Below, piece after piece: positions 21,481 through 47,900 of a DNA stretch of 64,000 nt. The position numbers and the translations under genes were made by a program. Under the pieces are notes generated by a model. The model saw only the letters and a list, made by a program, of their open reading frames with translations. It did no database searches and was not told the DNA's origin. The stretch's first letter is position 1, and each line of letters begins with the position of its first letter. Source of the stretch: Bacteroidales bacterium (lineage in GTDB: Bacteria; Bacteroidota; Bacteroidia; Bacteroidales; WCHB1-69); the NCBI GenBank assembly GCA_031272025.1, contig JAISUP010000008.1:654-64653 (forward strand), given 5' to 3'.

Positions 21481-22053
21481 TTAAGAACGCGGAGAAACAA
21501 TTTCTGTTTTTCGCCAATCTTCTATTTGTTTTTTGAGTGCATTTTTTGCTTTATACAATTGCGACCGAACCGTAACTTGACTACATTCTAACATTTCTGC
21601 TATTTTTTGAAATTCTAATCCTTCTATTTCACGCAAATTGAATACCATTCGATAACCCATAGGCAATTTATTGATCATCGCGAGCAGGACATCCATCGGT
21701 ATCTCAGGATCGGTAGGAATAGTTACAGGAAGTAAATGCTCTGGAATATCTTCTATCGGGACCATTTCTTCTGCTAAATGATTATGTTTTTTATGATACG
21801 AAATCAAAGTATTAATCGCGATTTTTTTCATCCAATATAAAAGAGAAGACTCGAAACGAAAATGAGAAATATTAAGAAAAATTTTCACGAAAATGTCTTG
21901 CAGTAAATCTTCGGCTTCTTCTTTATTTTTTGCATAACGTTTACAAATGCCAAATAAAGCAGGTGAGAAACGAAGATATAATAAAGATTGATGTCTCGTT
22001 TTCCCGGCAATACAGCCTTTTACCAATTCTTTTTCGGCGATGAATACACTCAT
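21481..22053 (-). CDS. ECF-type RNA polymerase sigma-70 family factor
   Basis: Region 2 (EEAEDLLQDIFVKIF) and region 4 with a helix-turn-helix (FQKIAEMLECSQVTVRSQLYKAKNALKK). Confidence 0.85.
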   Translation of the reverse strand: MSVFIAEKELVKGCIAGKTRHQSLLYLRFSPALFGICKRYAKNKEEAEDLLQDIFVKIFLNISHFRFESSLLYWMKKIAINTLISYHKKHNHLAEEMVPIEDIPEHLLPVTIPTDPEIPMDVLLAMINKLPMGYRMVFNLREIEGLEFQKIAEMLECSQVTVRSQLYKAKNALKKQIEDWRKTEIVSPRS

Positions 22054-22535
22054 GATTTTTCCGGTTTAGATTCTTGATTCGCGACAGCCCTAAACCGGGC
22101 TACTTCTCTTTTTTTTGCCATGAGTACGAGTTCTTTTCCCAAAATCCTGTAAGCGTTAATATTTCCTTGTTTGAATATATTTTGAAACGTTTTCTCGTCT
22201 TGTTGCATTCGCGTATCCATGCATAATTTCTTGGTAGCACCCATATAATCTATGTCTATCCGTTTGCTACTCGCGGTATAAGTCCCATAAAAATAGTTAC
22301 ATCCTGAAAAACCGCGACATTGTGCGGCAGTATCAAACACAATATACAAGGGGATACGCGTACTGTCTATCCTATTAGTGTCGTCGCTCGGGCAAATAAA
22401 TTCCCAACGCGTATGTAGTAAAGGCACCGAACTCACTTCTTTTTTCTGTCGACCGGTAAAAATGCAAGGGCTTCCACACGTTGAGAACACACAAAACAAA
22501 AAAAATAGCATGGGAAACACCTTTTCTTTTCTCAT
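22050..22535 (-). CDS. META-domain (HslJ-like) lipoprotein
   Basis: Signal and lipobox VFSTCG, and the META pattern GCNYFYGTY...ATKKLCMD. Its stop overlaps the sigma-factor ATG (ATGA). The start position is uncertain (22535 versus 22553 or 22583). Confidence 0.65.
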   Translation of the reverse strand: MRKEKVFPMLFFLFCVFSTCGSPCIFTGRQKKEVSSVPLLHTRWEFICPSDDTNRIDSTRIPLYIVFDTAAQCRGFSGCNYFYGTYTASSKRIDIDYMGATKKLCMDTRMQQDEKTFQNIFKQGNINAYRILGKELVLMAKKREVARFRAVANQESKPEKS

Positions 22536-22542
22536 TTTTAAA

Positions 22543-23148
22543 TCATGTTTCATTCTCATGATACTGTGCATTAATGGTTTCAATATAATTCAGTATCTCA
22601 TCGCGACCGGCTGTGGTACGGGCAGAGGAAATAAAAAATTCAGGCAATTCTTCCCATGTCTCCAACAACCTATGCCGGAAAAGGTCTACATGTGTCGCGA
22701 CTTTTTCTTTCCCTAATTTATCACTTTTGGTAAAAATAATCGCGTAAGGTACTCCCATCTCTCCCAAGTTATTGATAAATTCCAAATCTTTACTTTGTGG
22801 CTCTAAGCGTGAATCTATCAAGACAAAGACGAGTTGCAGATTTTCGCGATTGATAAGGTACTCTTCTATCATACGTACCCACATCTCGCGCATAGTCTTA
22901 GAAATAGTGGCATAACCATAACCCGGTAAATCCACGAGATACCATTGACCATCGACCAAAAAATGATTGATAGTTTGTGTCTTTCCCGGTTTAGAAGATG
23001 TCTTTGCCAATCCTTTCCTTTTTGCCAACATATTTATTAAGGACGATTTGCCCACGTTAGAACGCCCAATGAAAGCATATTCCGGCAAGGATTGCGACGG
23101 GCACTTCTTCCAATGGTCAACACTTTGGATAAATTCAACCTTTTTCAT
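22543..23148 (-). CDS. engB: ribosome-biogenesis GTPase YihA/YsxC
   Basis: GRSNVGKSSLIN (G1), DLPGYG (G3) and TKSDK (G4). I chose the ATG at 23148 because the long upstream extension in the track is low complexity and contains the promoter box. Confidence 0.85.
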   Translation of the reverse strand: MKKVEFIQSVDHWKKCPSQSLPEYAFIGRSNVGKSSLINMLAKRKGLAKTSSKPGKTQTINHFLVDGQWYLVDLPGYGYATISKTMREMWVRMIEEYLINRENLQLVFVLIDSRLEPQSKDLEFINNLGEMGVPYAIIFTKSDKLGKEKVATHVDLFRHRLLETWEELPEFFISSARTTAGRDEILNYIETINAQYHENET

Positions 23149-23166
23149 TTGCAAATAATTGGGGTG

Positions 23167-23174
23167 CAAATATA
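23167..23174 (-). promoter_or_regulatory. -7 promoter box TAtaTTTG(CA)
   Basis: 18 nt upstream of the engB ATG. Confidence 0.5.
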
Positions 23175-23203
23175 AGATTTTTTTTTTACATGGACAAAAA
23201 AAA

Positions 23204-25906
23204 TTATTTTTTTTCCAAATAAAATTTTTCAAAAAAATCTTTATATGCAGGTCTATCCGCTGTCGTGTTATAATACGTGGTATAATTTGTTGCCGCGATA
23301 GCATAAATAACGAGAGAGCCATCGCGCACTAACTCCTTAAAATAGTCGTTTCCTGATATGGCATGATAATAATCCATAGATTTATCTTTCCCGTTAAATT
23401 TGGAAACGGTGATCATCTGTTCGTTCTTGCTAATATAAAAACTGTTGACATTGAATTTTTGAAGACTAAAATACTTGGCATTAAAGTTGCTCACTTTGTT
23501 TTTCACGTCCATCACGGCAAGTTTGTCCACGTTAAGAATAAGAATAATGTAGTGCATTTCTAAGGGGTGATTTTCAAAACTGCCTATCATGTTCATAGTT
23601 TCCCCGCTTTTGCCCGAGGGAAAGTCCATGCTACTTGTCCCTGTTTCTCGCGATAATTGTTGATTTTTTGGGGATGGAGGGAGTGTGCTAAGATAAATTT
23701 CTGCCAATGTCGCGACAGGGAGACCTTCGTAATCGGTTTTCAACTGTTTTAAGTGGGCACGTAAGGTGTCGGTGCCCATCTGTTGACCCAATGCCACAGT
23801 CCTCAAATAGTCGTACTTAGACTTTAAAACTATATCGGGGCATACTTGTATTGCATCGGTAGACATCGCTATTACCGTACTCCATTGCTTGTTCGTGTAT
23901 GCCTCATAGACTGTTTCGTAACGAAGAGTCAGTTCTTGCTCTTTCTCCGCGATCTTCTTAAAATAATCGGGGTCTTTGATAATCTGCGCGTATTCGCTAT
24001 CGGGATATTTACTCAATATCTGCTCTTTATATATCAATGCTTTAGCATTTTCCATGCTTTGATAATTTCGATAAAGCATGTATAAAGACGGCAAACACAA
24101 GTCATTGTCGGGATAACGGGCAACCAATTTCTCGAAAGTCTCGCAGGCATGTTTCAAGTCTTTCAACTGGTCGGTATATATCATACCCGCTTGATACATT
24201 GCATTGATTACCATTTTATTGGATGAGTCCATTGCCGCGGGGGTAAGTGGCAAATCTTGGGTATAATAGGCGGGTTTTTTAGGGTCGCTTTCTCTGGGGA
24301 CAATAGGGTTCCCGTCCTCGTCATATTCCACGCTATCGGTTTTGTTGGTGGCATTAGGGTCGTTCATCGCCGAAAGTTCGTCAAAAGAAATCTGTTGTTT
24401 GTTGCTTATACGCCAGTTATCTTCCAACTTCCGATTTCCCCAATAACGATAAAATTCTGTCATACCGGAAGTTACTAATGATTGGTTATAAAAATACCAT
24501 TTCCCGTTAGAGGATTGTGTATTGATATTAGCCATTCCCGCGGTGCTGGCAAGAGCAGCCATACGATTGGCTTCTTCTTCTTGTGCTTTACGCTCGGCTT
24601 CGGTATAAGCGGCAATCATTTTTTGCACCCATTGGTTACGCTCGGCATCGCTCATCTTAGCAATTCGTTGCAAACTATCCTGTTCGGTTACGACATTTAA
24701 ATTTTCTACTAACGAGCGTAACACATTGCCTTTCTCTATCACGGCTTCCCTCCCGGGATAATTGCCCGGTAACGACAACGTTGCCGTGTCGTAATATGCT
24801 TGTGCTTCAATGTATTGCTCTTGATTAAATAAAAGGTCTCCTAATTTTACCGAAGAAAATGTCCTTTGATAATCATTATCTTGATACGAGGCGACCGAAA
24901 GGACCAGATTTTTTATCACGTCTGACGTGTCTTCGTCTATTTCTCCCATTTTTGCCATAGCATAATAAATCTGGTCTTTGTAGTTTAAGTTTTTCTTTTC
25001 TTCAAGCATACGGTGTAATGCTTTTAAGATTTTACCTTTCGAGGCGGCGGTACCGTCATAATTTGTAGCGAGATGCATTACCGCGCTAAATTCCATATCA
25101 TAAGGAGGTGTGCGTCCAATAACTTTTTGAAAACAACGACGTGCTTCCGGAAAATGCTCCGTGTTTTCGTACAATTGTCCTAAAATAAAATATAGTCGTG
25201 TTTTAAAAGCACGTTTTGGGTGATTGCGAATGGCTTCTTGTATATAATCTATCGCCACAGAGATGTCCCCGTCAGGCGCGGTCAATTGATACTCGGCTGC
25301 CGCCGCGTGATACATCGCTTTTAACTTGGGCGACTTCTTTTTCATCAACTCGTATTGTATCTCGTCAAGAGAAGCCAACGCGGTAGAATAATACCCTAAA
25401 CGGATATTGGTACGCACGTTCCATATCATGGCTTCTTCTCTGCAATTCCATTTCTTTTCCTTATAAGTGCTTGACATATAATTAAATATACGCAATGCCT
25501 GCCGATATTCTTGTTTGTAAAAATAGGCTTTTCCCATGAGCAGGTAGGTGTCGTCCATCGTGCGCACGTACTCCTTGCCCCGAAACATCATAGAATGTTT
25601 GTAAATAGACTTCGAGGCTTTGGTAATAGCCAAATCCAAAGAAGGATATGCCGAAGACAAATCGCTCTTCGCGGGATAGTAATAAATCGGCAACGTAGCG
25701 ATATAATTATCTTTGTTTTTCTTGGCTAATTCGGCTTCACCCTCTTTCAATGCCTCTCGCGCGTTAAAGTTCACGTTATACGTAGATACCACCGTATGAT
25801 ACGCCCTATTGATAGGCGTGTTCTTGCGCGTGGAGCACGACAAAACAAAAAATACACCCGACAAAAGCAGGCAACTAAAATAAAAGGTCTTAGCAAGTCG
25901 TTTCAA
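23204..25906 (-). CDS. porW: TPR-repeat outer-membrane lipoprotein, PorW/SprE-like T9SS component
   Basis: Lipobox VLSCSTRKN followed by INRAYHTVVSTYNVNFNAREAL, as in SprE/PorW N-termini. 900 aa with TPR-like repeats throughout. The start codon is TTG. Confidence 0.6.
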   Translation of the reverse strand: MKRLAKTFYFSCLLLSGVFFVLSCSTRKNTPINRAYHTVVSTYNVNFNAREALKEGEAELAKKNKDNYIATLPIYYYPAKSDLSSAYPSLDLAITKASKSIYKHSMMFRGKEYVRTMDDTYLLMGKAYFYKQEYRQALRIFNYMSSTYKEKKWNCREEAMIWNVRTNIRLGYYSTALASLDEIQYELMKKKSPKLKAMYHAAAAEYQLTAPDGDISVAIDYIQEAIRNHPKRAFKTRLYFILGQLYENTEHFPEARRCFQKVIGRTPPYDMEFSAVMHLATNYDGTAASKGKILKALHRMLEEKKNLNYKDQIYYAMAKMGEIDEDTSDVIKNLVLSVASYQDNDYQRTFSSVKLGDLLFNQEQYIEAQAYYDTATLSLPGNYPGREAVIEKGNVLRSLVENLNVVTEQDSLQRIAKMSDAERNQWVQKMIAAYTEAERKAQEEEANRMAALASTAGMANINTQSSNGKWYFYNQSLVTSGMTEFYRYWGNRKLEDNWRISNKQQISFDELSAMNDPNATNKTDSVEYDEDGNPIVPRESDPKKPAYYTQDLPLTPAAMDSSNKMVINAMYQAGMIYTDQLKDLKHACETFEKLVARYPDNDLCLPSLYMLYRNYQSMENAKALIYKEQILSKYPDSEYAQIIKDPDYFKKIAEKEQELTLRYETVYEAYTNKQWSTVIAMSTDAIQVCPDIVLKSKYDYLRTVALGQQMGTDTLRAHLKQLKTDYEGLPVATLAEIYLSTLPPSPKNQQLSRETGTSSMDFPSGKSGETMNMIGSFENHPLEMHYIILILNVDKLAVMDVKNKVSNFNAKYFSLQKFNVNSFYISKNEQMITVSKFNGKDKSMDYYHAISGNDYFKELVRDGSLVIYAIAATNYTTYYNTTADRPAYKDFFEKFYLEKK

Positions 25907-31205: not shown

Positions 31206-31365
31206 ATGGCATTTTTATGTTTCACGAAAAAAAAGGGGTAAATACGATTACGCTTGGGACGAAAATCTATTTTTTTGGGGCGAAAGTTAAAAATACGGGG
31301 TAAAAGATACTCTCCCTTGCTGCTTTTTGCAAGCGACATGATAGGATACTTCTTAAAAAAATCGT

Positions 31366-31373
31366 TACCTTTG
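31366..31373 (+). promoter_or_regulatory. -7 promoter box TAccTTTG(CA)
   Basis: 36 nt upstream of the ATG at 31410. Confidence 0.5.
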
Positions 31374-31409
31374 CAGTCCGGTTTTTCAAATATAAAATAT
31401 AATAATAAT

Positions 31410-33473
31410 ATGATAAATACCAAATTATTAAGTCCAAAAAGTATTGTCGTGGTAGGTGCATCTAACGATTTGCATAAACCTGGGGGCAAGGTACTCAAAA
31501 ATTTATTGGATAGTCCTTTTAAAGGGACCATTTACACGGTAAATCCAAAAGAAACTGAGATACAGGGGATACAATGCTATGCACGGGTAGAAGATTTGCC
31601 TGAGGTAGATTGTGCTATACTCGCTATCGCGGCAAAATATTGTCCGGCAACAGTAGAAATTCTTGCCCGACAAAAATCTACCGGCGGTTTTATTATTATT
31701 TCAGCCGGGTTTGGCGAAGAGAATGCCGAGGGTGCCCGTCTTGAGCAAGATATCGTGCGCACCATTAACGAAGTTGGAGGTAGCCTGATAGGTCCTAATT
31801 GCACGGGTTTTCTCAACATGAACTATTGCGGGGCATTCGATGCCCCTATACCGCCATTAAATGCTAAGGGGGTGGATTTTATCACGGGGTCGGGTGCTAC
31901 TGCCGTTTTTATCAAAGAGTATGGCATATCTAATGGGCTTACTTTCAATAGTGTATGGGCGGTAGGTAATTCGGCACAAATAGGGATAGAAGATGTTCTC
32001 GAACATTTAGATCGAACATTTGACCCGGACAAGAGTTCGCGTGTCATTATGCTTTACATGGAAAATGTGCGTGCTCCCCGTAAATTACTGCAACACGCGT
32101 CTTCTCTTATCAATAAAGGCTGTAAAATTGCCGCCATTAAGTCGGGCAACTCGTCCGCGGGGAGTCGGGCAGCCTCGTCTCACACGGGTGCTTTGGCTTC
32201 GTCTGATGTTGCAGTCGAGGCACTCTTTCGCGAAGCCGGTATCGTGCGCTGTCATAATCGAGAAGAACTCACCACGGTATGCGCTATTTTCATGTATCCT
32301 GAAGTGAAAGGTAAAAATATAGCGATTATCACTCACGCGGGAGGTCCTGCCGTGATGCTTACTGATGTCCTTTCACGACACGGGTTAGAAGTACCTCATT
32401 TGGAAGGAGCCGTCGCCGAAGAACTGCTCTCCAAACTATACCCCGGTTCCTCGACCGGCAATCCTATCGACTTTCTCGCCACGGGTACCGCCGAACAATT
32501 GGGAACCATTATAGATTACGTAGACAATAGATTTGAACAAATTGATGCCATGTGTGTTATCTTTGGTTCCCCCGGTCTCTTTGCCAATTGGGAGGTATAT
32601 AAAGTATTGGACGAAAAAATGAAGACATGCCGTAAGCCCATTTTCCCTATTTTACCTTCTATCGTGAACGTGAAAGATGAAATCGAAGATTTTATAAAGA
32701 TCAAACATCGCATCAATTTTCCCGAAGAATGTGTGTTTGGCAAAGCCCTTGCCAAGATATTAAACACCCCCAAACCAAGACCTGCTACCCCGTGCATGCC
32801 CACGATAGATCATGCCCGCGTACGAAATATCATAGGAGAAGTGGGTAACGGCTACCTCTCGCTCGACCATATTAGAGAATTATTGGATGCCGCCGGTATA
32901 GCACATAAAGAAGAAACAGAGGTTGTTGATGTTGAGCACGCGGTAGATTTTGCCCGAAAAGTAGGCTATCCCTTGGTCATGAAGGTAGTGGGTCCCTTGC
33001 ATAAATCAGACGTGGGCGGCGTGGTACTTAATGTCAAAGATGAGGCTACGGTGAGAAAAGAATTTGAGCGTTTGATTAAAATTAAAGATACTTACGCGGT
33101 AGAGATGTACAAGATGCTATTTGGTACAGAACTCTTTATAGGAGCTTCGCGTGAGCCTACATTCGGACATCAAGTTTTATTTGGCTTAGGCGGCATTTTT
33201 ATTGAAGTCTTAAAAGACGTGCAGGCAGCGCTAACCCCCGTGAGCAAAGAAGAAGCCCTTTCTTTGATTAAGAAATTACACGGTTATAAAATTATTCAGG
33301 GGGTGCGCGGACAAGAACCCGTGAACGAAGATATTTTTGCAGAAACCATCGCCCGAGTATCAGCGTTGGTACAAGTTGCCCCCGAAATTGCCGAAATGGA
33401 CTTAAACCCACTCTTGGGAACCTCTACCTCTCTTACCGCCGTTGATGCAAGAATAAGAATAGAAAAAAGTTAA
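31410..33473 (+). CDS. ADP-forming acetyl/acyl-CoA synthetase family protein (CoA-binding + succinyl-CoA-ligase-like + ATP-grasp domains)
   Basis: LLSPKSIVVVGASND (CoA-binding), SHTGALAS (phospho-His loop) and a C-terminal ATP-grasp domain. I chose the ATG at 31410 after the promoter box; the track extension from 31254 is low complexity. Confidence 0.8.
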   Translation: MINTKLLSPKSIVVVGASNDLHKPGGKVLKNLLDSPFKGTIYTVNPKETEIQGIQCYARVEDLPEVDCAILAIAAKYCPATVEILARQKSTGGFIIISAGFGEENAEGARLEQDIVRTINEVGGSLIGPNCTGFLNMNYCGAFDAPIPPLNAKGVDFITGSGATAVFIKEYGISNGLTFNSVWAVGNSAQIGIEDVLEHLDRTFDPDKSSRVIMLYMENVRAPRKLLQHASSLINKGCKIAAIKSGNSSAGSRAASSHTGALASSDVAVEALFREAGIVRCHNREELTTVCAIFMYPEVKGKNIAIITHAGGPAVMLTDVLSRHGLEVPHLEGAVAEELLSKLYPGSSTGNPIDFLATGTAEQLGTIIDYVDNRFEQIDAMCVIFGSPGLFANWEVYKVLDEKMKTCRKPIFPILPSIVNVKDEIEDFIKIKHRINFPEECVFGKALAKILNTPKPRPATPCMPTIDHARVRNIIGEVGNGYLSLDHIRELLDAAGIAHKEETEVVDVEHAVDFARKVGYPLVMKVVGPLHKSDVGGVVLNVKDEATVRKEFERLIKIKDTYAVEMYKMLFGTELFIGASREPTFGHQVLFGLGGIFIEVLKDVQAALTPVSKEEALSLIKKLHGYKIIQGVRGQEPVNEDIFAETIARVSALVQVAPEIAEMDLNPLLGTSTSLTAVDARIRIEKS

Positions 33474-33997
33474 TCTATCGGCTTTTCAAGTAAATTGTGT
33501 CTGAAAGGATCTAACTCGTGAACTTGCATGTCCGGCGTGAGAAAAAGACAAGTAGGAGTTTCGTTGCCATATAAATAATAATTCACCGAAACCATGTAGA
33601 GTAAAATATCGCGAGTATCAGGAGTATCCGTATCTTTTTGTTGTTGCGTGTAAAATAGAAAATAATCAAGCACATTGTCTATTTCTAACATGGCAGAATC
33701 AATGATATTCATGGTACTGTCATCTCCTAAAAAAACCGCTTCTTTATACTGAAATTCCATTTCTATTCTCATGTTTTCCAAAGTTTCAATCATCAAACGG
33801 GCATATCCTGCCGAAGACAGCGTGTCGATTTTGGTGATACGGAAAGAATCTACCTGCAAGGGCATCAAATACTTGTCAACAGCATCTTTGATTCGTACCT
33901 CCACGGGCTTTAAGGTTGAATTGCAGGCACCCAACAATAAAAACAAGCCCATCACAACCATAAAAAGAGGTTGAAAAAAGAGTTTAATATTTTTCAT
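33470..33997 (-). CDS. hypothetical lipoprotein
   Basis: Lipobox LLLGAC. It is the last gene of a three-gene co-directional cluster. Its stop overlaps the convergent gene's stop (TTAA). Confidence 0.5.
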   Translation of the reverse strand: MKNIKLFFQPLFMVVMGLFLLLGACNSTLKPVEVRIKDAVDKYLMPLQVDSFRITKIDTLSSAGYARLMIETLENMRIEMEFQYKEAVFLGDDSTMNIIDSAMLEIDNVLDYFLFYTQQQKDTDTPDTRDILLYMVSVNYYLYGNETPTCLFLTPDMQVHELDPFRHNLLEKPID

Positions 33998-34012
33998 TTA
34001 CTATATATTTAT

Positions 34013-35137
34013 TTAATAAACAATCACTTTCGACAGGATGTCAAAATGGTCTTCACGGGCGGGCAACGTTTCTATTTTTCCCCATTGTAAGAAAGGCAAT
34101 GTTCCCATTTCTTGCAACACCCGATTATCGCACTGCAAAGAAAGACTCACGGGTACGGGATACCGAACACGATAACCGGCATTTGCTTTGCCTTTGTATT
34201 TTTGCCCGCGCGCACCTGCAATGCCATCTTCAAACTGCCGCGAACATAACATAGGTGTAAATACAAGATAATAATTTTGTTCCGTGTTCATGCTAACGGT
34301 AGGACTAAATCCCGCCTCAGTGTCCAATGAAAAAAGTAAGTGCCGATTTTGTTTTTCATCGGGGAAAATCGTGAAACATATCTTCTCCTCCTCTTCTAAG
34401 GTAAAGCCTGTAAACAATGCTAAATAATTTCTTTCCAACACGTTCAACTCGTCAATCATGCGTGCGAAAGTTCCTTCCGGATAAGCGGCTTCGTCCTCGC
34501 CCGACAGCAAATGATAACGGTCTTTACGAATATTCAAAATAAAATCGGCGGCTTCCTGTGCCTTTTGTCCCAAGGTTTTTGAAACTACTTTTGTTTGACT
34601 TACAGGAACTTGCGAAACAATCCCGTTGACAATACGAGTATCTAAAAAAGAATCGTCAATTTTTGTATAAGCAAAATCAGCATAGTCGCGAAAAAATTCA
34701 GGCATTACCGCCCGAACTACCGTGTAATCTTGCAAGGGAACACGGGTAAATTCTACCCCCCTATTCTCGTGCACGCGCGACAAAAATCCCGACTTTACTT
34801 GTGCTTTTGATAATTCAACCCCGTACACGCGAGTAGTATCAGGCATAGTAGAAACATTAACATGTACATTTTTAAGATTATATGTTATTTTATTATCCGA
34901 GATAACACGGGTCAATCCCAATAATTTTTCAGCATAATCTCCATAATATCCTTTAAACTCTATAGTTTTAGTAAGCGTAACCTCTACCTGTAACGCGGTA
35001 GTGGGCAACATGTAATAAAAATATTGTCCGGTTACGGGCTTTTCGGTGGGAGTATTGGGTAAAACAAAAACTTTTTCCTGCGCGAACAAACGGGTACCGG
35101 TCATCACGAGCAAACACAATATCAATAACTTTTTCAT
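34013..35137 (-). CDS. hypothetical exported protein (possibly DUF4831-like)
   Basis: Signal peptide MKKLLILCLLVMTGTRLFAQ. 374 aa with no catalytic motif recognised. The family name is from memory only. Confidence 0.45.
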   Translation of the reverse strand: MKKLLILCLLVMTGTRLFAQEKVFVLPNTPTEKPVTGQYFYYMLPTTALQVEVTLTKTIEFKGYYGDYAEKLLGLTRVISDNKITYNLKNVHVNVSTMPDTTRVYGVELSKAQVKSGFLSRVHENRGVEFTRVPLQDYTVVRAVMPEFFRDYADFAYTKIDDSFLDTRIVNGIVSQVPVSQTKVVSKTLGQKAQEAADFILNIRKDRYHLLSGEDEAAYPEGTFARMIDELNVLERNYLALFTGFTLEEEEKICFTIFPDEKQNRHLLFSLDTEAGFSPTVSMNTEQNYYLVFTPMLCSRQFEDGIAGARGQKYKGKANAGYRVRYPVPVSLSLQCDNRVLQEMGTLPFLQWGKIETLPAREDHFDILSKVIVY

Positions 35138-35168
35138 AATTTAATCATTTTATGGATTTTTGCAATGG

Positions 35169-36146
35169 TTATTCTACCTTAACAAACTTCGCTAATGGAG
35201 ACATCCGTGCACGATGCAATACAAGCACGTTGTTCTCTATCAAATAACTGTCTGTAAGATTTAATACTTTGGATAATTCGGTTTCCGTGTTCATGACATC
35301 TTTGTTCAGGCATGCCATTTTGGTTTGCACCAGCCCGGGAAAAGCAATCCTGTTTCCTTCTTTCAAAACATACGTACCACTCACATTATTACAACCCAAA
35401 TTGCCATTCATGGTACCATCTTCGTTCAAGAAAATAAAGATTTCTTTTTTGTTTTCTTGTTCGGGGAAGGCTTTGCCATTGAGTTCTATCAATTTCCAAC
35501 GATGTCCCAACAAAGGATTTTCGTTTTGTTGTTTTCCTTTTCCTACCGGTTGCGCGAGAAGGGCTTCTCCATGAAAACCCAACAATTTTTTAATCTGTTC
35601 TCTGTCAATATTTCCCAAAGACACCGTATGCAATCCTTCGGAGGCACAAAACAAGTGCACGTTTTGAGTTACATTTCCGCAATCGGTAGCCCCGTACAAA
35701 GTCGCCGCGGTCTCGTCCATACCCGGCATCTTGTCCCTATTGGCAACATATACCAACACCAGTGGAGCCGTATGTGCGAAGTCATTTCGTGCCGACATTT
35801 TACGGGCATCTCCTGCCTTCACGAGTTTTAATACATGAGACGGGGCTTCGTAAAGATAAATCGCGTCTGATGTAAATACATAAATATCAATTTCTTGCAT
35901 ATTTCTTGCCGAGGGTGCCGTGCGTCTCCCGTCCTGACGATTTACCCCATTGGCTGCCCACAAAAGATTAGACAACTGCTGCAAAGGCAACTTCTCGGAC
36001 GAGAAATCCCGGTACGATTTGCGCGCCCAAAGCGTTTCCATAAAAGGCTTGCCTCCGGTTTTATCGGGCGGTAATAATTGAATATCCTGCGCGTTCATGC
36101 TGATTATCACGATACTTGCTAAAAAATTTAAACATAACTTTTTCAT
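35169..36146 (-). CDS. exported nitroreductase-family (SagB/ThcOx-like) protein fused to a C-terminal META domain
   Basis: Signal peptide MKKLCLNFLASIVIISMNAQ. The nitroreductase part has RKSYRDFSSEKLPLQQLSNLLWAANGVNR...RTAPSARNMQEIDIYV. The C-terminal ~110 aa, LLGHRWKLIELNG...GCNNVSGTY...TKMAC, is META-like. Confidence 0.7.
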   Translation of the reverse strand: MKKLCLNFLASIVIISMNAQDIQLLPPDKTGGKPFMETLWARKSYRDFSSEKLPLQQLSNLLWAANGVNRQDGRRTAPSARNMQEIDIYVFTSDAIYLYEAPSHVLKLVKAGDARKMSARNDFAHTAPLVLVYVANRDKMPGMDETAATLYGATDCGNVTQNVHLFCASEGLHTVSLGNIDREQIKKLLGFHGEALLAQPVGKGKQQNENPLLGHRWKLIELNGKAFPEQENKKEIFIFLNEDGTMNGNLGCNNVSGTYVLKEGNRIAFPGLVQTKMACLNKDVMNTETELSKVLNLTDSYLIENNVLVLHRARMSPLAKFVKVE

Positions 36147-36203
36147 ATCAAATTTTCTTATTTTATACATAAAAGAATGGTCATATTTCAACGATTCGTG
36201 TCG

Positions 36204-36211
36204 CGAAAATA
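36204..36211 (-). promoter_or_regulatory. -7 promoter box, TTCGCG variant (TAttTTCGCG)
   Basis: 57 nt upstream of the ATG at 36146. It lies 12 nt upstream of the track's TTG start at 36191, which argues for the shorter gene model. Confidence 0.45.
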
Positions 36212-36285
36212 CAATTTTTTATCTTAGAAACTATGAAAATCTTAAAAAAAACGTTTTTTTTTAACTTTAATCAAAAAAAATACCT

Positions 36286-36293
36286 TACATTTG
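36286..36293 (+). promoter_or_regulatory. -7 promoter box TAcaTTTG(CA)
   Basis: 27 nt upstream of the ATG at 36321. Confidence 0.5.
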
Positions 36294-36320
36294 CAACGTT
36301 TTTTTTTAATTTTTTTAATT

Positions 36321-37721
36321 ATGAAAATATCGTTTTTAGGTGCGACATCTGAAGTTACGGGGAGTAAGTTTTTGCTTACAACCGTAGAAGGAAAGAAAAT
36401 CTTGTTGGATTGTGGGATGTATCAAGGGAAAGGCTTAGAGACCGATGCCATGAATCGTGATTTAGGATTCGAGGCACGGGATATTGACTACTTGTTACTT
36501 TCGCATGCCCATATCGACCATTCGGGTCTCATTCCCTATCTTTATAAGAGAGGTTTTCGGGGTACTGTATTTTGTACTCCGGCTACCCGTGATTTATGCT
36601 CTATCATGTTGCTGGATTCGGGAAAAATACAGGAGATAGATACCGCCCAATTTAATAAAAAAAGAGTCATGCAGGGATTACCCACCGTACAACCTATTTA
36701 TACCATGCAAGACGCGGCATTTTGCATGCGCTATTTTGTAAGTATTCCCTACGATCTCTCTTTTGAAATTACCCCCGGTTTTAAGGTGCAATTTATAGAT
36801 ACCGGGCATATCTTAGGCGGAGGTGCCATTTATATGACTATTAAAGAAGATGGAGTAGAAAAAACGCTTTGTTATACCGGAGATATAGGGCGTTACGACA
36901 AGCCTTTGTTGCCCGACCCGAAACCTTTCCCTCAGGCAGATTTTATTATTACCGAATCTACTTATGGCGACCGGTTGCACGATGCATTGCCTCACGCGGA
37001 AGAGGAGTTGGCACTCGCGGTAAAAGATGCGATATTGCAGCGCAAAGGAAAACTCATTATCCCCACTTTTGCCATTGGACGCACGCAAGATCTTGTCTAT
37101 GCCCTTCATCGACTCAAAACCGCGAAGATGCTACCCGACGTGGAAATCTTCGTGGATAGCCCCTTAGCCGTTTCGGCAACAGATATCTTTCGTCTTCACG
37201 CCGACTGTTTTGATGAAGAGATGCAAACATTCATGGACACTCATCCGGATCCTTTCGGGTTCAATAAATTACATTATGTAAGAACCATAGAAGACTCTAA
37301 GCGACTGAATACTTACAATCGTCCTTGCATTATTCTATCGGCTTCGGGTATGATGGAAGCCGGACGCGTAAAACATCATCTCGCTAATAACATAGAAAAC
37401 CCGCGAACTACAATATTGGCAGTAGGCTACTGCTCACCTTCTACCCTTGGTGCCAAAATATTGCGGGGCGACAAAAAGGTCTCCATTTTTGGGAATCTGT
37501 ATCATGTACGGGCTAAAGTTGCCTGCATAGATGCCTTTTCTGGACATGGCGACTACAAGGAAATGATACGCTACCTCTCGTGCCAAGAACCGGACAAAGT
37601 AAAACATATCTTCGTGGTACACGGGGAAGATGCTGCCCGCGAAACTTACACGAAACATCTCGCACAGGCAGGCTTTCAACAAGTGATTGTCCCCTCTTTC
37701 AGAAAAGAATATACAATTTAA
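36321..37721 (+). CDS. MBL-fold metallo-hydrolase with a beta-CASP/RNA-metabolising domain
   Basis: The HAHIDHSG motif, then beta-CASP and a C-terminal His (VHGE) arrangement. Confidence 0.8.
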   Translation: MKISFLGATSEVTGSKFLLTTVEGKKILLDCGMYQGKGLETDAMNRDLGFEARDIDYLLLSHAHIDHSGLIPYLYKRGFRGTVFCTPATRDLCSIMLLDSGKIQEIDTAQFNKKRVMQGLPTVQPIYTMQDAAFCMRYFVSIPYDLSFEITPGFKVQFIDTGHILGGGAIYMTIKEDGVEKTLCYTGDIGRYDKPLLPDPKPFPQADFIITESTYGDRLHDALPHAEEELALAVKDAILQRKGKLIIPTFAIGRTQDLVYALHRLKTAKMLPDVEIFVDSPLAVSATDIFRLHADCFDEEMQTFMDTHPDPFGFNKLHYVRTIEDSKRLNTYNRPCIILSASGMMEAGRVKHHLANNIENPRTTILAVGYCSPSTLGAKILRGDKKVSIFGNLYHVRAKVACIDAFSGHGDYKEMIRYLSCQEPDKVKHIFVVHGEDAARETYTKHLAQAGFQQVIVPSFRKEYTI

Positions 37722-38906: not shown

Positions 38907-41900
38907 ATGAAAAAGTTCCTATTTGTTATCGCGTTATGGGCGATAGTTCCGGCGGCGGTTTTCGCGCAGTTGTTGGACTCTACGTGGATTTATTATGAGA
39001 ATTTTAACGGGACAACAAGCAAAATTACTACCAGAGTAAAAGAAACCGATGTAACAGGCACCGAAGGTCGCACATGGGCTATAACCCAGCCTGCATGGGC
39101 TGCCAATAAATGTATGCGTGCTTATCACACGAAAGCCAGTGGAGACTACCAAATCGCTTACACCAAGCCGATTCCTTACAACCGGTCTACCCCGTTCACC
39201 TATTTGCAGTTTGATCATATTTGTAAAGTATATGGACTATCCGACGGTGACAATAATCCTGCTTATATTTTGATTCAATTCTCGTCAGATACCAACGCGG
39301 TCAACGCGTGGTCTTCGGAAACGTACCTGATGGGAAATTCGGTATTGTCGTTTAATGCTACTTCCGAAACCTACTTTGGAAATGCCACCACGATATTACA
39401 AGCCACAGCATATTATCCCAGCCTGATCACGTATGCTTCATTTTCAGATAAATCTTACAGCACGTGGGTCAATGGTAGTCCCACTACGATACCTACGGCA
39501 AGTTGGTGGAAAAACGAAACCATTAGAATAGACAACGAGTTACAGCAAGCAGCAGCCAATATCACGTTTTTCAGGGTAGCATTTATTTACTCCGTTTATT
39601 CGCCTACCACTGGCAACAATAATAATATGGCAGGATGGTTCGTGGACAACATCCGGGTTATCAATTCCAATGCCGACATCAACCCGCCCAAGATTACTTT
39701 GCAAAGCCCGTATAAAGTCAATGATCTTAAGCAAGATAGTGTAAATAATTATTACGAGATAAAGGCGTTGATTTCAGATTGGGGCAATGATACCCTTAAC
39801 CTCAATAGCATTTCTTTTAAATACAAGAATGGAAAAAATGCCTCGTGGATTACCTTGCCGGCATACAATTCTACCACTAATCGGACAACAACAGGGCACA
39901 AGGAACATCAATACACCGGGTTTTGGCGTGTTCCCAAACATTGTATCGGGGACACGATTTATTACACGATTTCAGCCACAGACATGCATGGGAACACGGC
40001 TACATTAGATACTAATTTTCGCTTGGTATCCAATTTCACTAATAATGTAACGAGCAATGATGCGTGGATGCGCAAATTTCACGATTTTCCATTTGCCTTA
40101 ACCACGGGGCAGTCTCATCCTGTTAAGGTGTCATTTGCCAACCGTTCCCAAAATCTCATGACTTCTTTGCAAATAGGGTGGAGTCATAACGGGGTGCAGA
40201 AAACTACATACAATTGGACCGCGCCGCCCGCGACTGCCCTTTGCATGGAAGAGCGGGACACGGTAATCTTGGGCAATATCGTGCCTGTAAATGGGCATAA
40301 CTATATCAAAGCATGGGTAATAAAGCGAAACGGGGCAAATGACAACGGCACGTTGAATAACGACACGATTTATGCCGATGTCTATTCTTGCGACAGCGCG
40401 CTCAACGGTACTTATACCGTAGGAGATGCCACCGCAGATTTCCCCACGATAGCCGCCTTAAAAGACAAACTCGCGAATTGTGGTATCGGTGGCAATGTGG
40501 TCATCAATCTCAAACCGGGGACTTATAGCGACTTCACATTCGACCAAACCTATAACGGGCAGTCGCAAGCCCACAGGATTACTTTCCAAGCCGAAAACGG
40601 CAACCGGAATGCCGTTATTATACAAGATAATAGCACTTCAGGAACGGGGGCTATCGTGCTCAACGGGGTGGGTTTTTATACTTTCCACAATCTCACCATT
40701 AAGGGAAAAACAACAGGAACCAGTTCCAGAGGGGTAACCTTTTTAAACAAAGCAACCACATCTTCCGACATCGTGATGAATCAATATATTACCATCTCTA
40801 ATTGCAAAATAGAAGTCAATACTCCGGCAACTCCCGGGACCGCGGATACTTATACTGGCATTTATCGTCTATTGAGCACGGCAAATAAAATAGATCGGCA
40901 TATCACGATCAAAGATAATATCATTACCGGCGGCAACTATGGCATTAACTATAAAGGAACAGGAACCGCCACTTGTCGCAATCAATTAGATGAAGTAACC
41001 GGAAACGAGATTAGCGCGGCAACACTTGGTATCGTGCTTTTTTACGACACAGTGAGCACGGTGTCGCACAACACGATAACACAAATCGGCACCACGGCAG
41101 GTTTTAGAGGTATTGACTTGGAAAATATTTACTTATGTCAGCAAGTTTCGGGAAACACGGTAAAAAACACGTCCACCGCGATTAAGGGCATTTATTTAGC
41201 GACAGTAGCCGGCACATCTTCTCTCCCGCTTAAAGTGGCTAATAATGAAGTAAATATATGTGTATCAGGGAGTTCTCCTACAGGGATAGAATTAGCCAAT
41301 GCCAGTAATAACGTGCAATTGTTGCACAATTCGGTACGGTTGTATGCCACGGCGAACCTAACTTCGCGCAGTGCCGGAGTAAAAACTACCGGAACAGGAA
41401 ACAACCAAATTGTCAATCTGGTTTTAAAAAATAATATCTTAGTTAACGAAGTCAATGGTTCCACCGAAACGTATCATGGTTGTCCGATTGAACTCGCGAA
41501 TCTTACCACTACATCATCTTTAACAGCAGATTATAATTTATTTTACTCTCCCAACGGGGTTGTAGGTTATTATAAGGCAAACCGGTCTTCGTTAGAGCAA
41601 TGGTGTTGGTATGTCAACGCGGACATGCAAGGCGGTAGCGTGGAAGATCATGGCATGGTACGCGACCCCGGTTTTGCTCATACCGACAGTTGCTTAGAAC
41701 TTTCGATATACGATGGATTAGAGGTTCCTATGATACCCGGTATAACCGAGGATATTAGAGGTATACAGAGAAAAACGCTCACCTATTTTGGAGCCTATAC
41801 CATTGTTTTGCCGGATGTGAATATCGCCTTGATAGAATTAGTGTCGCCACTTCCTGCTTCATGCCCGCAAAATACTGCCAATATCACGTTGAAAATAAGA

Positions 41901-44900
41901 AATGTAGGAGGTGAATCCATTAATTTTAACAGCACGACATCCAAACTAACCATACAAGCCGACATTTCGGGTGGTTACGAATTTCACCAGCCCGTTACCG
42001 TTACTACCGGTTCTTTAAATCCATTGGAAACACGAGATGTAATCATCAAGACAAACGCGCCGTTAGGGGTAAACGATCCTATCTATTTTAAGTTTGTCGC
42101 GAGCATCGCGGGCGATACCATCCATAGAAACGACACGTTAGAGCATGTTTTCTTACAAGAAAATGTAATCTTAAATATTACGGCTAATCCCAACGAGTAT
42201 GACCAAACGTTTTCTGCCCCAACCCTCTCGGACCTTTCTCCTGCATGGAAATCCGAACAAATCAGTGGGCTGGGCAATTGGAAAATAGAAAGTGGCACGG
42301 GGAGCAATCCTACCCTTGACCCAACATACGGGGGGGGACGGCTTTTCTTAGATTTAAAGAATTCGTCTCTTACCACCACTAACACTACCTTAGTCCTTTC
42401 GCGCGCCATTATGCCTGCCTTTTCTTTGGTAGGTAGCGAAAATCCTACCTTAAACGTGTGGTTCGCGCACGACAAAGTAGGGACAACCTCTATCGTTTCC
42501 GGTATAGTAGTTAAAGTATCCATTGATGGAGGTAACACGTTTACAGCGTTGAGAGCCACGGAATTTACAAATCAACAAGACACCTTAATCAAACGGTATC
42601 ACGCCTCTTACACTACCGCCGCCTTCAAACGCTATATCTTTAACCTTAACCCGTATATAGGGCAACAATGCGTGATTATTGCTATTGACGGACGCGGACT
42701 CGGCGCGGTAGCCAGCAATAGCAACTTGAATATTGACAGAGTATATATCAATAATGTCCGTTCCGATGATTTTAGTCTTACTGATTTATATTCATGGAGT
42801 GAGGCACCCACTAAAGCCAACATGTCCATGAAAACCAAAGTGCGAGTGGTTAACGTTGGAGCAGAAGAAAAAACGCACGATATCACGCTGAAAGTATCGG
42901 GAGCAAACACGTATACAGAAACCGTGAGCAACGTAACGCTTCCTTTTCTTGGAGAAACGGTTATTAGTTTCAACGGGACACATTTGAATAACAACGGGAA
43001 CAATGTAGTAACCGTGTTCGTGTCTGGCGGCGACAACAACAAGCAAAACGACACGATACGAAAACCTTTGACTACCTATGATTATAGAGTAAATTTCGCG
43101 GACACTTCTACCAATCTCAAAGCCATTGGCGGTACGGCGGGAACCCGTCTCGCGAATCGTTATAACGTGGCAGAAGAAATCATTACCAATGCCGTACGTT
43201 TTTATCCCGTGAGTATCACAGATAATCCTGTGGGGAAAAAAGTATATGCTTTCGTGTCGGATCTCGCGGGTAACGTGATTGCCCAATCCGATACCCTTAC
43301 CCTCACCGCCGGGCATGTGAACACTTGGGTAGAGTTACCCATGAACCAATCCATATTGAGTAACGTGAGCGACTGTTTTTTCGCGGGAATACATCTCATG
43401 GATGCCGGTAATTACATCGGGGCACAAGTGGAGGCACCCATGCGCGATTCGGCATACTATACCTTGGGAACCAATAAACAATATACCCCGCAGGTTAATG
43501 GCAGGGCAATGATTGGGGCAGTAGTAGAAAAAGCCATATTGAACGACATGGCATTACTTTCGTATGTTTCACCGGTATCAAATTGCGACTTGGGACACGA
43601 GAATGTTACATTGAACTTGACTAACTACGGGTCGCAAACCATTCCCGCGGGCACAGTTTTTCACTTGTCGGTCAATAATTCGCACGTAGCACAACAAACC
43701 ATGACTGAGCCTTTGCCTCGTTTGGGGACGACTACATTCACGTTCTCCTACAAACCCGACTTTACCAACACGCAAGTTGGTGTAGACGACAACTATCAGT
43801 TAAAAGTATGGATAGAAAAGTTAACGGCAGACCGTGTTCCCGGCAACGACACGTTAGAATACGATTTTATTTCGCGGGGTAAAGCCAACATGCCCACGGT
43901 TAGTACGCCAATAAACGTACCATATAGTACTTCGGGGACGCTTACGGCAACCTTTCCTCCTGCCATACCTGCAAACAATGGAGTGCTTTCGTGGTACCAA
44001 AATGTGGGCGTGGAGCAATGGCAATTATTGGGACAAGGCAATACATTCCTAACCCCTGAAATTTTGTGGGATACAGCCTATTATGTCAATGTGGCTCAGG
44101 GAGGAATTGATGAAGCCATTTGTGGCACCGGCACCGTCTCAAACTCTTACATGTTTAACCTCATCAATAACTATTCCAAAGCCCGTGCCCTTTACCGTGC
44201 CATAGATTTAGGTAATAAAAATGGCTATGTTGCTAAAATCTTCGTTAACGTGGAATTACCTACTACACCGGTAGAAAACGTGGCTAATATAAAGATATAT
44301 CTTAAAAATACAGACCTGACCGCATTGACTGTACATGCTGTAAGTTCTTGGACAGATGAAATATCGGGTGCCTTATTAGTGTACGATGGTCCGTCTTCGA
44401 TATTTAACAAGGCGGGGTGGAACGAATTGGTATTGCCCGAACTCTTTAAATACACGGGACAAAGTTTGATGATTTTAACAGAGAGCACAGGAACCGTGGG
44501 AACGGCTACCAATATTTGTAAATTTATTTCTACCAATGTAACTAATACGCAGGATTATAGGACTGCCGCAGATGCTTTTAACTCGGCAACCTTTTCAACC
44601 AGCTCTGCCCGTATGAATGTTAAGTTTTCTTTTGCCGATATTTTGTGCCCCAGTGAAAAAGTGCCCATTCAAATTCTTATGACCGGAGCACCTAATTATG
44701 ACTTAGAAACGATGAAATTTTTACCCCCAACAGGTGCTTACGGCAATTACTGTACCTTAGAAAACGAGCATCCCGTCGTTATCTTAAAAAACCGGATGAA
44801 CTCGACTATTCCTGCTAATAAAGTGAAAATTACGGCGATATTTAATGGTACCCCCATTACCTATACCGTGGATAGACCTATTTTAGCGTCTTCTATCGAT

Positions 44901-47900
44901 ACCATTACATTCCCCAATACTTTCGATTTTAAAGCAACCACTGCCGATATTACATGGAATTACACTATTTTTACCGACCTGCTTGGAGAAAGCATTGTTT
45001 TTAGAAATGACGATACGATTAAGGGTAATTTTAAAGCGGAACAAACCGATTGGTTCCCCGATGAAATAGATTCTATCAATCACCCGTTTGCCACAGACTT
45101 TAAATTACAACTACGCGAAACTAACGGGAACTATAACGCGTCACGCAGATATTGGGTATACAATAACCCCGAAGGAACCGGTACCCCCTTAGCCAGCAAC
45201 GTGGCTTCGTTCACTACCCCCGTGCTATATGACGACATTACTTACTGGGTAAAATCTATCAACTTACAAACTGCCGCTCCCCGTTGTAGCACGAAAATGG
45301 TGAAATATACCATACATCTGCTCGCTCCTCAGCACGACTTGAAAGCCGTTTCGTACAATAGCCCGAATAACTACGAATGCGGTTTGACTAATGCCCATTT
45401 TAATGTAGATGTACAAAATACCCGTGTGGGCGTTATTCCCGCTAACACGTTCAAAATCAATGCAAATCTTACAGGGACAAGCACAAAGACAGGCTCTCAA
45501 ACCATTACCGTACCCATTGACAGTTTGGCTACTCACAAGGTAATTTTCAATACAGCAATAGACCTAACCTCACCCACACAAAACAATATATATAACTATG
45601 TCATCACGGTACAGCCTACGGGGAATATGCCCAACGACTATAAAAATAATGATACCCTAACGGGCGTGTTGAAAGTGCCTGCACTACCCAATGCTCCTAC
45701 TCCCATTTCCAGATCTGTAACCTTTGGAAATGAAGAACACATTGTTCCCTCCGAGTCATATCTTAATTATTTCTATTTTTATGATCAAAATGTTGGTGGT
45801 AATGTTATAGGCGAGGGAACTTCTTTTACCACTCCCCCCATTCGTACCAATACCACTTATTACTATTCGGGACGTATTCGGCAACCCGAATTTGCCGCAC
45901 AGCCCATTTGTGGGACAGGAACAACTCAGAATGTTTCTACTTTCAGTTTTACCACGGGAACCAATGCCACGAAATTGGGACAAGCAATACAATTGTATGA
46001 GGCAGCCGAATTAAACGATGGTTACGCGGGATATATAGATACCGTATCTATTCCTATCACGCATATCGCGGGTTCGCCTTTCCCCGTGAAGTTTTATATC
46101 CTTAACGACAGTACTACCTCCCTTGCTACAGCAGGAGCCTATCCTTGGGCAACGCTCGTGTCAAAGGCGACCTTAATTTTTGATGGAGAAACTGATTTTG
46201 GAAATACAGAGAACATTGACGGTATCGCGTGGTTTAAAATGCCCGTGCAAGGAGGTTTCTATTACACGGGACACAATATCTTATTGCTCATCGTACAAGA
46301 TTGTAATGGAGAATCTTGTTACACGATGGTAGGGAATAGCAGCAATACCACCCCGAATTTTAGATGCACGAGCAAAGCCAATTTCGCTGTGAACCGGCTC
46401 AATAGCACCACGGGAACAGAGAATTTTGCTAAGATTACAAACCGGATCAATACTCGATTCTCTTTCACGTACACCTGCCCATCTCCTCGTTCGCCCATCA
46501 CGCTAACCACGGTACAACCCGCTTGCGACCTGCAAGTAGCAAATATCACTGCCCCCATCACCCCGAATGATAATTACAGTACGAGCGAACAAGTAACGGT
46601 ATCTATCAAAAACTGGGGAACAACGGCGGCTTCCAATTTCCCGGTTACTTATTGTTTGGAAGGAAAAACACCGGTAACAGAGACTTACACGAATACGATA
46701 GCCGCGGGAGGAACGGGCATTTTTACCTTCGCTGCCCCCATAGACCTCACAGATATATATTTCCCCGAAAAATTGACGGTGAGCGTAAGATTAGCCTGTG
46801 ATAATATCACCAAAGACGATACCCTGATTTTGGAAGTCCAAAAACCGTCTCCTTGCAAATCGTATCCCTTAGAAGCCGATAAAGCAGATATTTCTAATGT
46901 TACCATTGCCGACCTTAATAATGGTCCGGGACTACCCTTGTTCAACTATAATCCTAACCCCAACAACGGACGTTATACAAACTATACGCAGACAGTGCCC
47001 CCTGTAAACGTGGTGCGGGGACAATCTCACGATTTTTCCATTACCAATTCCTTTACTACCACCGCAGGTTCGTCTATTTATCGCTATATTTACGTAGATT
47101 TAAACCGCGATAACACACTTGCTACCAATGAAAATCTATTTTCATCTACGGCACAAACCCCCACGGCAAACAATGGATACGCCACGATTAGCGGGTCAAT
47201 TTATATCCCGGATACGGCAGCCTTGGGGTTAACTCTAATGCGAATAATCACGGCAAGTACAACACAAACTTCACCCTGCGCGATTTATACCAGCGGGGAA
47301 ACCGAAGATTATGCCATGATTATTCACGAACCATATAACATAGACCCCGGTATTGTAGAAATCGTACACCCTTCAGGCGAGGTATGTCCTGATTCGTCAG
47401 GTAGAGTACGTGTGCGTATCAAAAACCACGGTACCTCTCCCATAACTTTCTCGGAAACCATGCCCATGACCTTAACAGCAACCCTGAGAACAGCCACAGA
47501 CACCGTTTCTTACACACAAGATTATACTTCGGGTACCATCTTGCCGGACGAAACAACCATGTTCGCGGTGGATCATGTCAACTGGCGTAAAGCAGGCACG
47601 TATGCCGTGAGCGTGAGTATGACATACCCCCCGGATGAATACGTGTATAATAATGTTAAATCCGGAACCGTGGCTACCGTGAAGGCGAACACGAAAGTCA
47701 TAGAAATGTCGGACAAGAAAGCCTACGAACGATTTGACTACGAAAAACAATTGTATTCAGGGGAAGAAATTGATGAATTTTTACTTGATACTGCCTTGTG
47801 GACAGCAACGACAACGCCAACCACTGTTACCAACTTTAAGTGGTCGGTATTTATGAGTAAAACCGACAACGCGCCTAACGCGGGACCATTGCACGACCAC

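Follow-up and report, generated by a model that had tools for sequence, protein, structure and literature searches.

A predicted exported nitroreductase-META fusion beside a conserved DUF4831-lipoprotein gene pair in an uncultured gut Bacteroidales bacterium

A 64-kb stretch of a metagenome contig from an uncultured gut Bacteroidales bacterium (64,000 nt, referred to here as the window) carries three consecutive genes on its minus strand at 33470-36146, which we call g1, g2, and g3. They encode a nitroreductase fold joined to a C-terminal META domain, a DUF4831 protein, and a putative lipoprotein, respectively. The open reading frames (ORFs) are co-directional, as described in the initial annotation, with 31 nt between g1 and g2 and 15 nt between g2 and g3 (Table 1). 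That annotation had read them as a single envelope redox module. The explanation that we favor, and consider fairly probable, is that two independent units lie side by side: g1, an exported flavoenzyme-like fusion, and an envelope cassette made of g2 and g3.

The separation of g1 from its neighbors is based on gene neighborhoods. One genome per species was scanned with an alignment of 11 DUF4831 sequences, which gave 41 loci with flanks of up to 7 kb per side. A homolog of g3 lies directly downstream of DUF4831 in 26 loci by tblastn, and ORF extraction combined with a profile made from the tblastn matches places one there in 34 of the 38 close loci, with the two genes -17 to +56 nt apart. Of the four close loci without g3, two are contig ends, and the three most distant DUF4831 loci have no g3 partner. 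Searches by tblastn with the whole of g1, with its nitroreductase part, and with its META part found no homolog at any of the 41 DUF4831 loci (+/-7 kb). Homologs of DUF4831, g3, and META are likewise absent from all seven loci around the closest stand-alone relatives of g1. Since g2 and g3 are paired and g1 is missing from the DUF4831 loci, the conserved unit is g2 plus g3, with g1 as a lineage-specific neighbor. The gene upstream of DUF4831 differs by clade: Rnf-Nqr subunits account for 12 loci, SSF symporters for 7, and Zn_peptidase_2 proteins for 6, with Metallophos_2, NlpC/P60, and others elsewhere. The g2-g3 cassette follows varying genes in other genomes, and in this one it happens to stand behind g1.

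These results bear directly on the proposal that all three genes form one co-transcribed envelope redox module acting on a periplasmic or surface substrate. Consistent with a module, the genes share a strand, are separated by short gaps (31 and 15 nt) in which no terminator-like hairpin was found, carry export signals on all three products, and have no TAnnTTTG-like promoter box inside either gap even when one mismatch is allowed. Co-transcription of the three genes is plausible on spacing alone, and because the 31-nt gap holds no terminator, g1 and g2-g3 are probably on one transcript. The triad, however, is not conserved: g1 failed the co-conservation test at every DUF4831 locus, the partners are missing around the relatives of g1, and g2-g3 occurs elsewhere equally close behind unrelated genes (rnfA, SSF, and Zn-peptidase). 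A lack of co-conservation is the very outcome that the initial annotation had said would refute the module. We find no evidence of a function shared by g1 with g2-g3, and the module reading, not supported by this distribution of genes, now seems distinctly improbable.

A single promoter box shared by the three genes had also been proposed at 36204-36211. The sequence TATTTTCG is indeed found there (36211-36204) with one mismatch to the Bacteroidetes -7 consensus TAnnTTTG, but it is one of four such one-mismatch matches in the 184-nt AT-rich leader of g1. No exact TAnnTTTG box occurs in 33440-36330, and sigma-70-type matches are not commoner than in shuffled sequence. We regard TATTTTCG as a weak match to the consensus that provides no evidence for a single promoter.

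Both domains of g1 are recognized with strong scores, in agreement with the fusion first described. The nitroreductase part matches PF00881 with 85.9 bits (cutoff 23.5, residues 41-203, E = 4.7e-24), and the C-terminal part matches PF03724 with 82.8 bits (cutoff 24, profile positions 3-108 of 109, E = 2.1e-23). Matches in the PDB are 3HJ9, 8CQS, and 3HOI (E values of 8e-40 to 1e-33), all with chains that begin at the end of the signal peptide, and the depositors of 3HOI titled it "FMN-dependent nitroreductase BF3017" (Bacteroides fragilis). A search with the nitroreductase part of g1 gave 7739 matches, and the best 119 non-self matches among them are all single-domain proteins of 186-224 residues that are 50-63% identical to g1. 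These small exported nitroreductase-fold proteins are found in Bacteroidales and some Proteobacteria, include 3HOI, 8CQS, and 3HJ9 (the last from Ralstonia eutropha), and are named "SagB/ThcOx family dehydrogenase" or "nitroreductase family protein" by NCBI. Over residues 1-205 of g1, to which the 50-63% identity applies, they share with it a Sec signal ending A↓Q, an N-terminal LPxPxKxGGKP segment, and the invariant residues. Unlike g1, they consist of one domain of about 186-224 residues that ends at QPVG[YF]PK, and META is present in none of the best 119.

The integrity of the residues for binding flavin mononucleotide (FMN), which had been raised as a check, was judged from conservation. 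In an alignment of 20 family members, 38 columns show no variation, and g1 retains every one of them, including R42-K-S44-Y-R46, and the pattern R-x-[ST]-x-R is strictly conserved across the family. The R-x-S-x-R motif is typical of an FMN-phosphate site.

The assignment of g1 to the SagB/ThcOx type holds in part. TIGR03605 is its best NCBIfam match (E = 8.8e-14), but the score of 51.4 bits falls below the curated cutoff of 78.4. The SagB/ThcOx/McbC azoline dehydrogenases of ribosomally synthesized and post-translationally modified peptide (RiPP) pathways belong to the same superfamily as g1. They are cytoplasmic and encoded with cyclodehydratase genes. In contrast, g1 is predicted to be exported and is flanked by DUF4831, a beta-CASP RNase, and an ADP-forming acyl-CoA synthetase. 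A context of YcaO/cyclodehydratase and precursor peptide is absent at g1, and the neighborhoods of its relatives show NfeD-FloA or hut genes.

The closest stand-alone relatives of g1 (56-61% identical) lie downstream of NfeD-FloA (flotillin) in five of six distinct neighborhoods (L048, L050/L051, L053, L054, and L055), directly adjacent in four and with a 268-residue gene product encoded in between in L053, and tyrS is often upstream. In the sixth (L047), the nitroreductase gene follows a hut/FTCD cluster. No FloA, NfeD, or TyrS and no paralogs were found in the 64-kb window.

Export signals were judged by a simple heuristic of hydrophobicity and charge, and lipoboxes by pattern. The N-termini of g1 (MKKLCLNFLASIVIISMNA↓QD), g2 (MKKLLILCLLVMTGTRLFA↓QE), and g3 (MKNIKLFFQPLFMVVMGLFLLLGA↓C, with lipobox Cys25) are all signal-like by this measure. 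Those of g1 and g2 fit the Sec/signal peptidase I (SPase I) pattern, with a positive n-region, a hydrophobic h-region, a small residue at -1, and Gln at +1; the A↓Q cleavage pattern is known as the Bacteroidetes "Q-rule". A19 and Q20 are near-invariant in the nitroreductase family, Q20 is near-invariant across the DUF4831 homologs (62 of 64 of which have the signal), and the lipobox Cys25 is retained in 27 of 29 homologs of g3. Because these signal residues are conserved in homologs, the export calls for the three genes are strengthened, and the predicted N-terminal export signals initially noted on all three products are upheld. The choice of start codon in g1 does not alter this, since its in-frame alternatives upstream of the ATG at 36146 used here (ATG 36170 and TTG 36191) would merely extend the n-region and leave the signal peptide sound.

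The export of a nitroreductase had at first seemed odd. Among the best 120 of the 7739 family matches, however, 95 carry the same Sec signal as g1, with its A↓Q end, and the remaining 25 start inside the signal (e.g., MNAQEK.. and MLTLSMNAQ..), which indicates that they are truncated gene calls. Predicted Sec export is the rule for the whole subfamily, several thousand sequences, and is not peculiar to g1; what is unusual is the fusion to META. Export by the twin-arginine (Tat) route was rejected for g1, which lacks a twin-arginine motif. An RR pattern occurs in 1 of the best 120 of the 7739 family matches, and this near-absence argues that the family as a whole is exported by Sec and not by Tat. 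Many public gene calls in the nitroreductase family are shortened at the N-terminus, as is the public Joint Genome Institute (JGI) call of g2 (363 residues), whose start lies 11 codons inside the ATG-initiated ORF adopted here, so that most of the signal peptide is lost.

Where the stand-alone homologs stop at QPVG[YF]PK, g1 continues past QPVGKG, and the linker KQQNENPLLG leads into META. This part of g1 matches HslJ in the PDB (2kts, E = 1.8e-4), and its closest relatives are HslJ-like lipoproteins of 143-157 residues that are 47-54% identical and end in NRARM[SA]PLAKF, which reads NRARMSPLAKF in g1. These relatives have their own signal peptide and lipobox, both of which are lacking from the META part of g1. 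The comparison shows the predicted META domain of g1 to be copied from an HslJ-like lipoprotein, minus signal peptide and lipobox. In the HslJ/META1/NlpE_N-META envelope lipoproteins (PF03724), to which the 143-157-residue relatives belong, the partners seen with META are additional META repeats or an NlpE N-terminal domain; unlike them, g1 has its META domain attached to an enzyme-like domain and without a lipid anchor. The META fold has been described as a cracked barrel that encloses a hydrophobic cavity (PMC3270026).

Residues 150-325 of g1 were used in a phmmer search against 1.84 billion (1.84e9) representative proteins, and among the matches listed only g1 itself spans the junction. The other 149 matches listed cover the META part alone and are multi-META repeats or HslJ-like lipoproteins of 143-162 residues that are 43-54% identical. 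A Pfam scan of ten shorter META-part matches (245-384 residues) found NlpE_N with META in seven, META alone in three, and a nitroreductase domain in none. The META fusion is the sole unusual feature of g1, a predicted novel architecture from known parts.

An architecture seen once could be a functionless accident, such as a recent deletion that joined neighboring genes and was tolerated rather than selected, or an artefact of assembly or sequencing. The search results fit this view, in that g1 is the sole junction-spanning protein among the matches listed against the 1.84e9 representatives and among the best 120 of the 7739 family matches, and the fusion is known from one organism. Against it, the ORF is intact, the two domains meet precisely at their boundary through a short polar linker, nothing is left of the donor signal peptide, the family-invariant residues are all kept, and both domains score strongly in Pfam. 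The fusion ORF is also present in a second, separately built assembly, in which the 6978-bp stretch read is identical to the window. An accident or artefact is on this evidence quite unlikely. In these data the fusion is real and seems functional, though a singleton.

A second, free-standing META protein encoded at 22050-22535 on the minus strand, noted in the initial annotation, was confirmed (Pfam META, E = 1.2e-14). It was rejected as the source of the g1 META domain by recent duplication, the two being only 25% identical. This protein is a probable lipoprotein with an N-terminus that begins MRKEKVFPMLFFLFCVFSTC. Its gene overlaps by 4 nt the start of a gene for an extracytoplasmic function (ECF)-type sigma-70 factor (21481-22053, minus strand) and lies 7 nt behind a GTPase gene (22543-23322, minus strand), which suggests that the GTPase, META, and ECF sigma-70 genes (21481-23322) are on one transcript.

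Under the two-unit explanation, g1 belongs to a large, unstudied nitroreductase-fold family with a mature length of about 185 residues that is predicted to be exported by Sec and cut before Gln, and in this one lineage g1 has gained a C-terminal META domain from an HslJ-like lipoprotein. Mature g1 would be a periplasmic homodimeric FMN enzyme. To our knowledge, NAD(P)H is absent from the periplasm, and for this reason g1 would most likely work as a dehydrogenase or oxidase, or accept electrons from a carrier that is small or membrane-soluble, and would be less likely to act as a nitroreductase of the classical NAD(P)H type. The hydrophobic pocket of META might hold the enzyme at the membrane surface or offer a hydrophobic ligand to the flavin site. 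The second unit pairs an exported DUF4831 protein, g2, with a lipoprotein, g3, and the two would assemble into an envelope complex of their own.

Alternatively, the exported nitroreductase-fold domain may not be a flavoenzyme at all and may bind another ligand or a partner, with META as a second binding pocket. The rarity of twin-arginine motifs (none in g1, 1 of the best 120 family matches) indicates that cofactor-loaded Tat export is not used, the lack of periplasmic NAD(P)H fits this possibility as well, and a literature search returned no description of a periplasmic nitroreductase, the phrase "periplasmic nitroreductase" itself having no match. The strict conservation of R-x-[ST]-x-R and the other invariant residues across the family, together with the name that the depositors gave to 3HOI, speaks for flavin, and we consider a non-flavin role rather unlikely.

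Several points weigh against the interpretation of g1 as a periplasmic flavoenzyme independent of g2-g3. Occupancy by FMN after Sec export is hypothetical: Sec moves unfolded chains, and we know of no periplasmic flavin-loading route for the nitroreductase fold. The FMN contact residues were judged only by family invariance and the general R-x-S-x-R motif. The signal heuristic is crude and also flags, as a false positive, the over-long TTG-start ORF of the neighboring beta-CASP gene. The fusion is a singleton, selection for it is hypothetical, and function is inferred. A functional link of g1 with g2-g3 that is limited to this lineage could still underlie their close spacing and common export, even though the genes are not co-conserved. 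A literature search found no paper that studies 3HOI, 8CQS, or BF3017, and 3HJ9 appears in a paper on ThcOx solely as a failed molecular-replacement model (PMC5108345).

The locus itself, a singleton fusion beside an unrelated conserved pair, is of modest importance, and we consider it outweighed by questions at the level of the families: how a flavin fold comes to be exported by Sec, the NfeD-FloA neighborhood of the g1 relatives, and the DUF4831-lipoprotein pair. Predicted Sec export is the rule for a very common Bacteroidales nitroreductase-fold family, which raises the question of how flavin and electrons reach the protein outside the cytoplasm. One possibility, which we think unlikely though not far-fetched, is that the small Sec-exported proteins are a true class of periplasmic flavoenzymes that receive flavin after export and take up or give off electrons via a membrane-soluble carrier. 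If so, the fusion to the lipid pocket of META and the recurrent NfeD-FloA neighborhood of the closest g1 relatives would point to a hydrophobic, membrane-associated substrate.

The initial annotation had recognized no motif in g2 or g3. This is true of g3, which matches no Pfam or NCBIfam family, but g2 is a clear member of DUF4831 (PF16115, 109.9 bits, cutoff 27, E = 1.8e-31). It has 64 non-self relatives at 22-47% identity, the nearest at 46-47%, and nothing distinguishes it from the DUF4831 proteins of other Bacteroidales. The AlphaFold2 (AF2) model of g2 is confident, has a predicted local distance difference test (pLDDT) of 85 and a predicted template modeling score (pTM) of 0.75, and consists of very long beta-hairpins and an alpha-helical hairpin. 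A Foldseek search of the PDB with this model gave no significant match; the best was MexA (E = 0.09, TM 0.14-0.20), and we do not claim on this non-significant match that DUF4831 resembles a periplasmic adaptor. The homologs of g3 (162-188 residues) are a previously unnamed partner of DUF4831, and a Pfam scan of 29 of them found no consistent family. A model of g3 from its single sequence is of moderate quality (pLDDT 71) and combines one helix and one strand with a long helical hairpin and a beta-hairpin, for which Foldseek gave only non-significant PDB matches (e.g., helical hairpins). Profile searches of PDB sequences with g2 and g3 gave nothing below E = 0.008. Proteomics of outer-membrane vesicles from Tannerella forsythia detected a DUF4831 protein (PMC10682907), which agrees with an envelope location. 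With its constant lipoprotein partner, DUF4831 would make up a two-protein envelope system that can be studied in cultivable Bacteroides, Parabacteroides, and Tannerella.

The Rnf-Nqr gene (rnfA-like, PF02508, E = 3e-55) that precedes the DUF4831-lipoprotein pair in 12 of the 41 genomes (L006, L007, L010, L012, L016, L018, L021, L025, L026, L029, L032, and L033) is separated from DUF4831 by 26-83 nt in ten of them and by more than 600 nt in L006 and L033. This adjacency could stem from synteny within the clade or from an actual connection with the Rnf complex. No rnfA was found in the window.

Table 1. Positions of g1, g2, g3, and their predicted features in the window
Feature	Positions	Strand	Basis
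g1, nitroreductase-fold and META fusion, predicted exported, 325 residues	35169..36146	-	Pfam; PDB matches 3hj9, 8cqs, 3hoi
g1 signal peptide, Sec (SPase I), residues 1-19, predicted cut MNA↓Q	36090..36146	-	heuristic and family conservation
g1 nitroreductase-fold domain, residues 41-203	35538..36026	-	PF00881, E = 4.7e-24; family-invariant residues all present
g1 META (HslJ-like) domain, residues 211-321, linker KQQNENPLLG	35184..35516	-	PF03724, E = 2.1e-23
g2, predicted exported DUF4831 protein, 374 residues; signal residues 1-19, predicted cut LFA↓Q	34013..35137	-	PF16115, E = 1.8e-31
g3, predicted lipoprotein, 175 residues, lipobox LLGA↓C25, conserved DUF4831 partner	33470..33997	-	Pfam/NCBIfam: no family
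Candidate Bacteroidetes -7 box TATTTTCG	36204..36211	-	one mismatch to TAnnTTTG

The genes adjacent to the locus encode a beta-CASP RNase, an AI-2E transporter, and the ADP-forming acyl-CoA synthetase. The last of these (31254-33473, 739 residues, with CoA_binding, Succ_CoA_lig, and ATP-grasp_5 domains) is convergent with g3, and its end overlaps the stop of g3 by 4 nt (33470-33473), which leaves no space for a terminator between the two genes. Farther away on the plus strand (38907-48953), an ORF of 3348 residues with GEVED and Ig_7 domains and a C-terminal Por_Secre_tail (type IX secretion system, T9SS, sorting) encodes what is, by these domains, a predicted giant surface or secreted protein.

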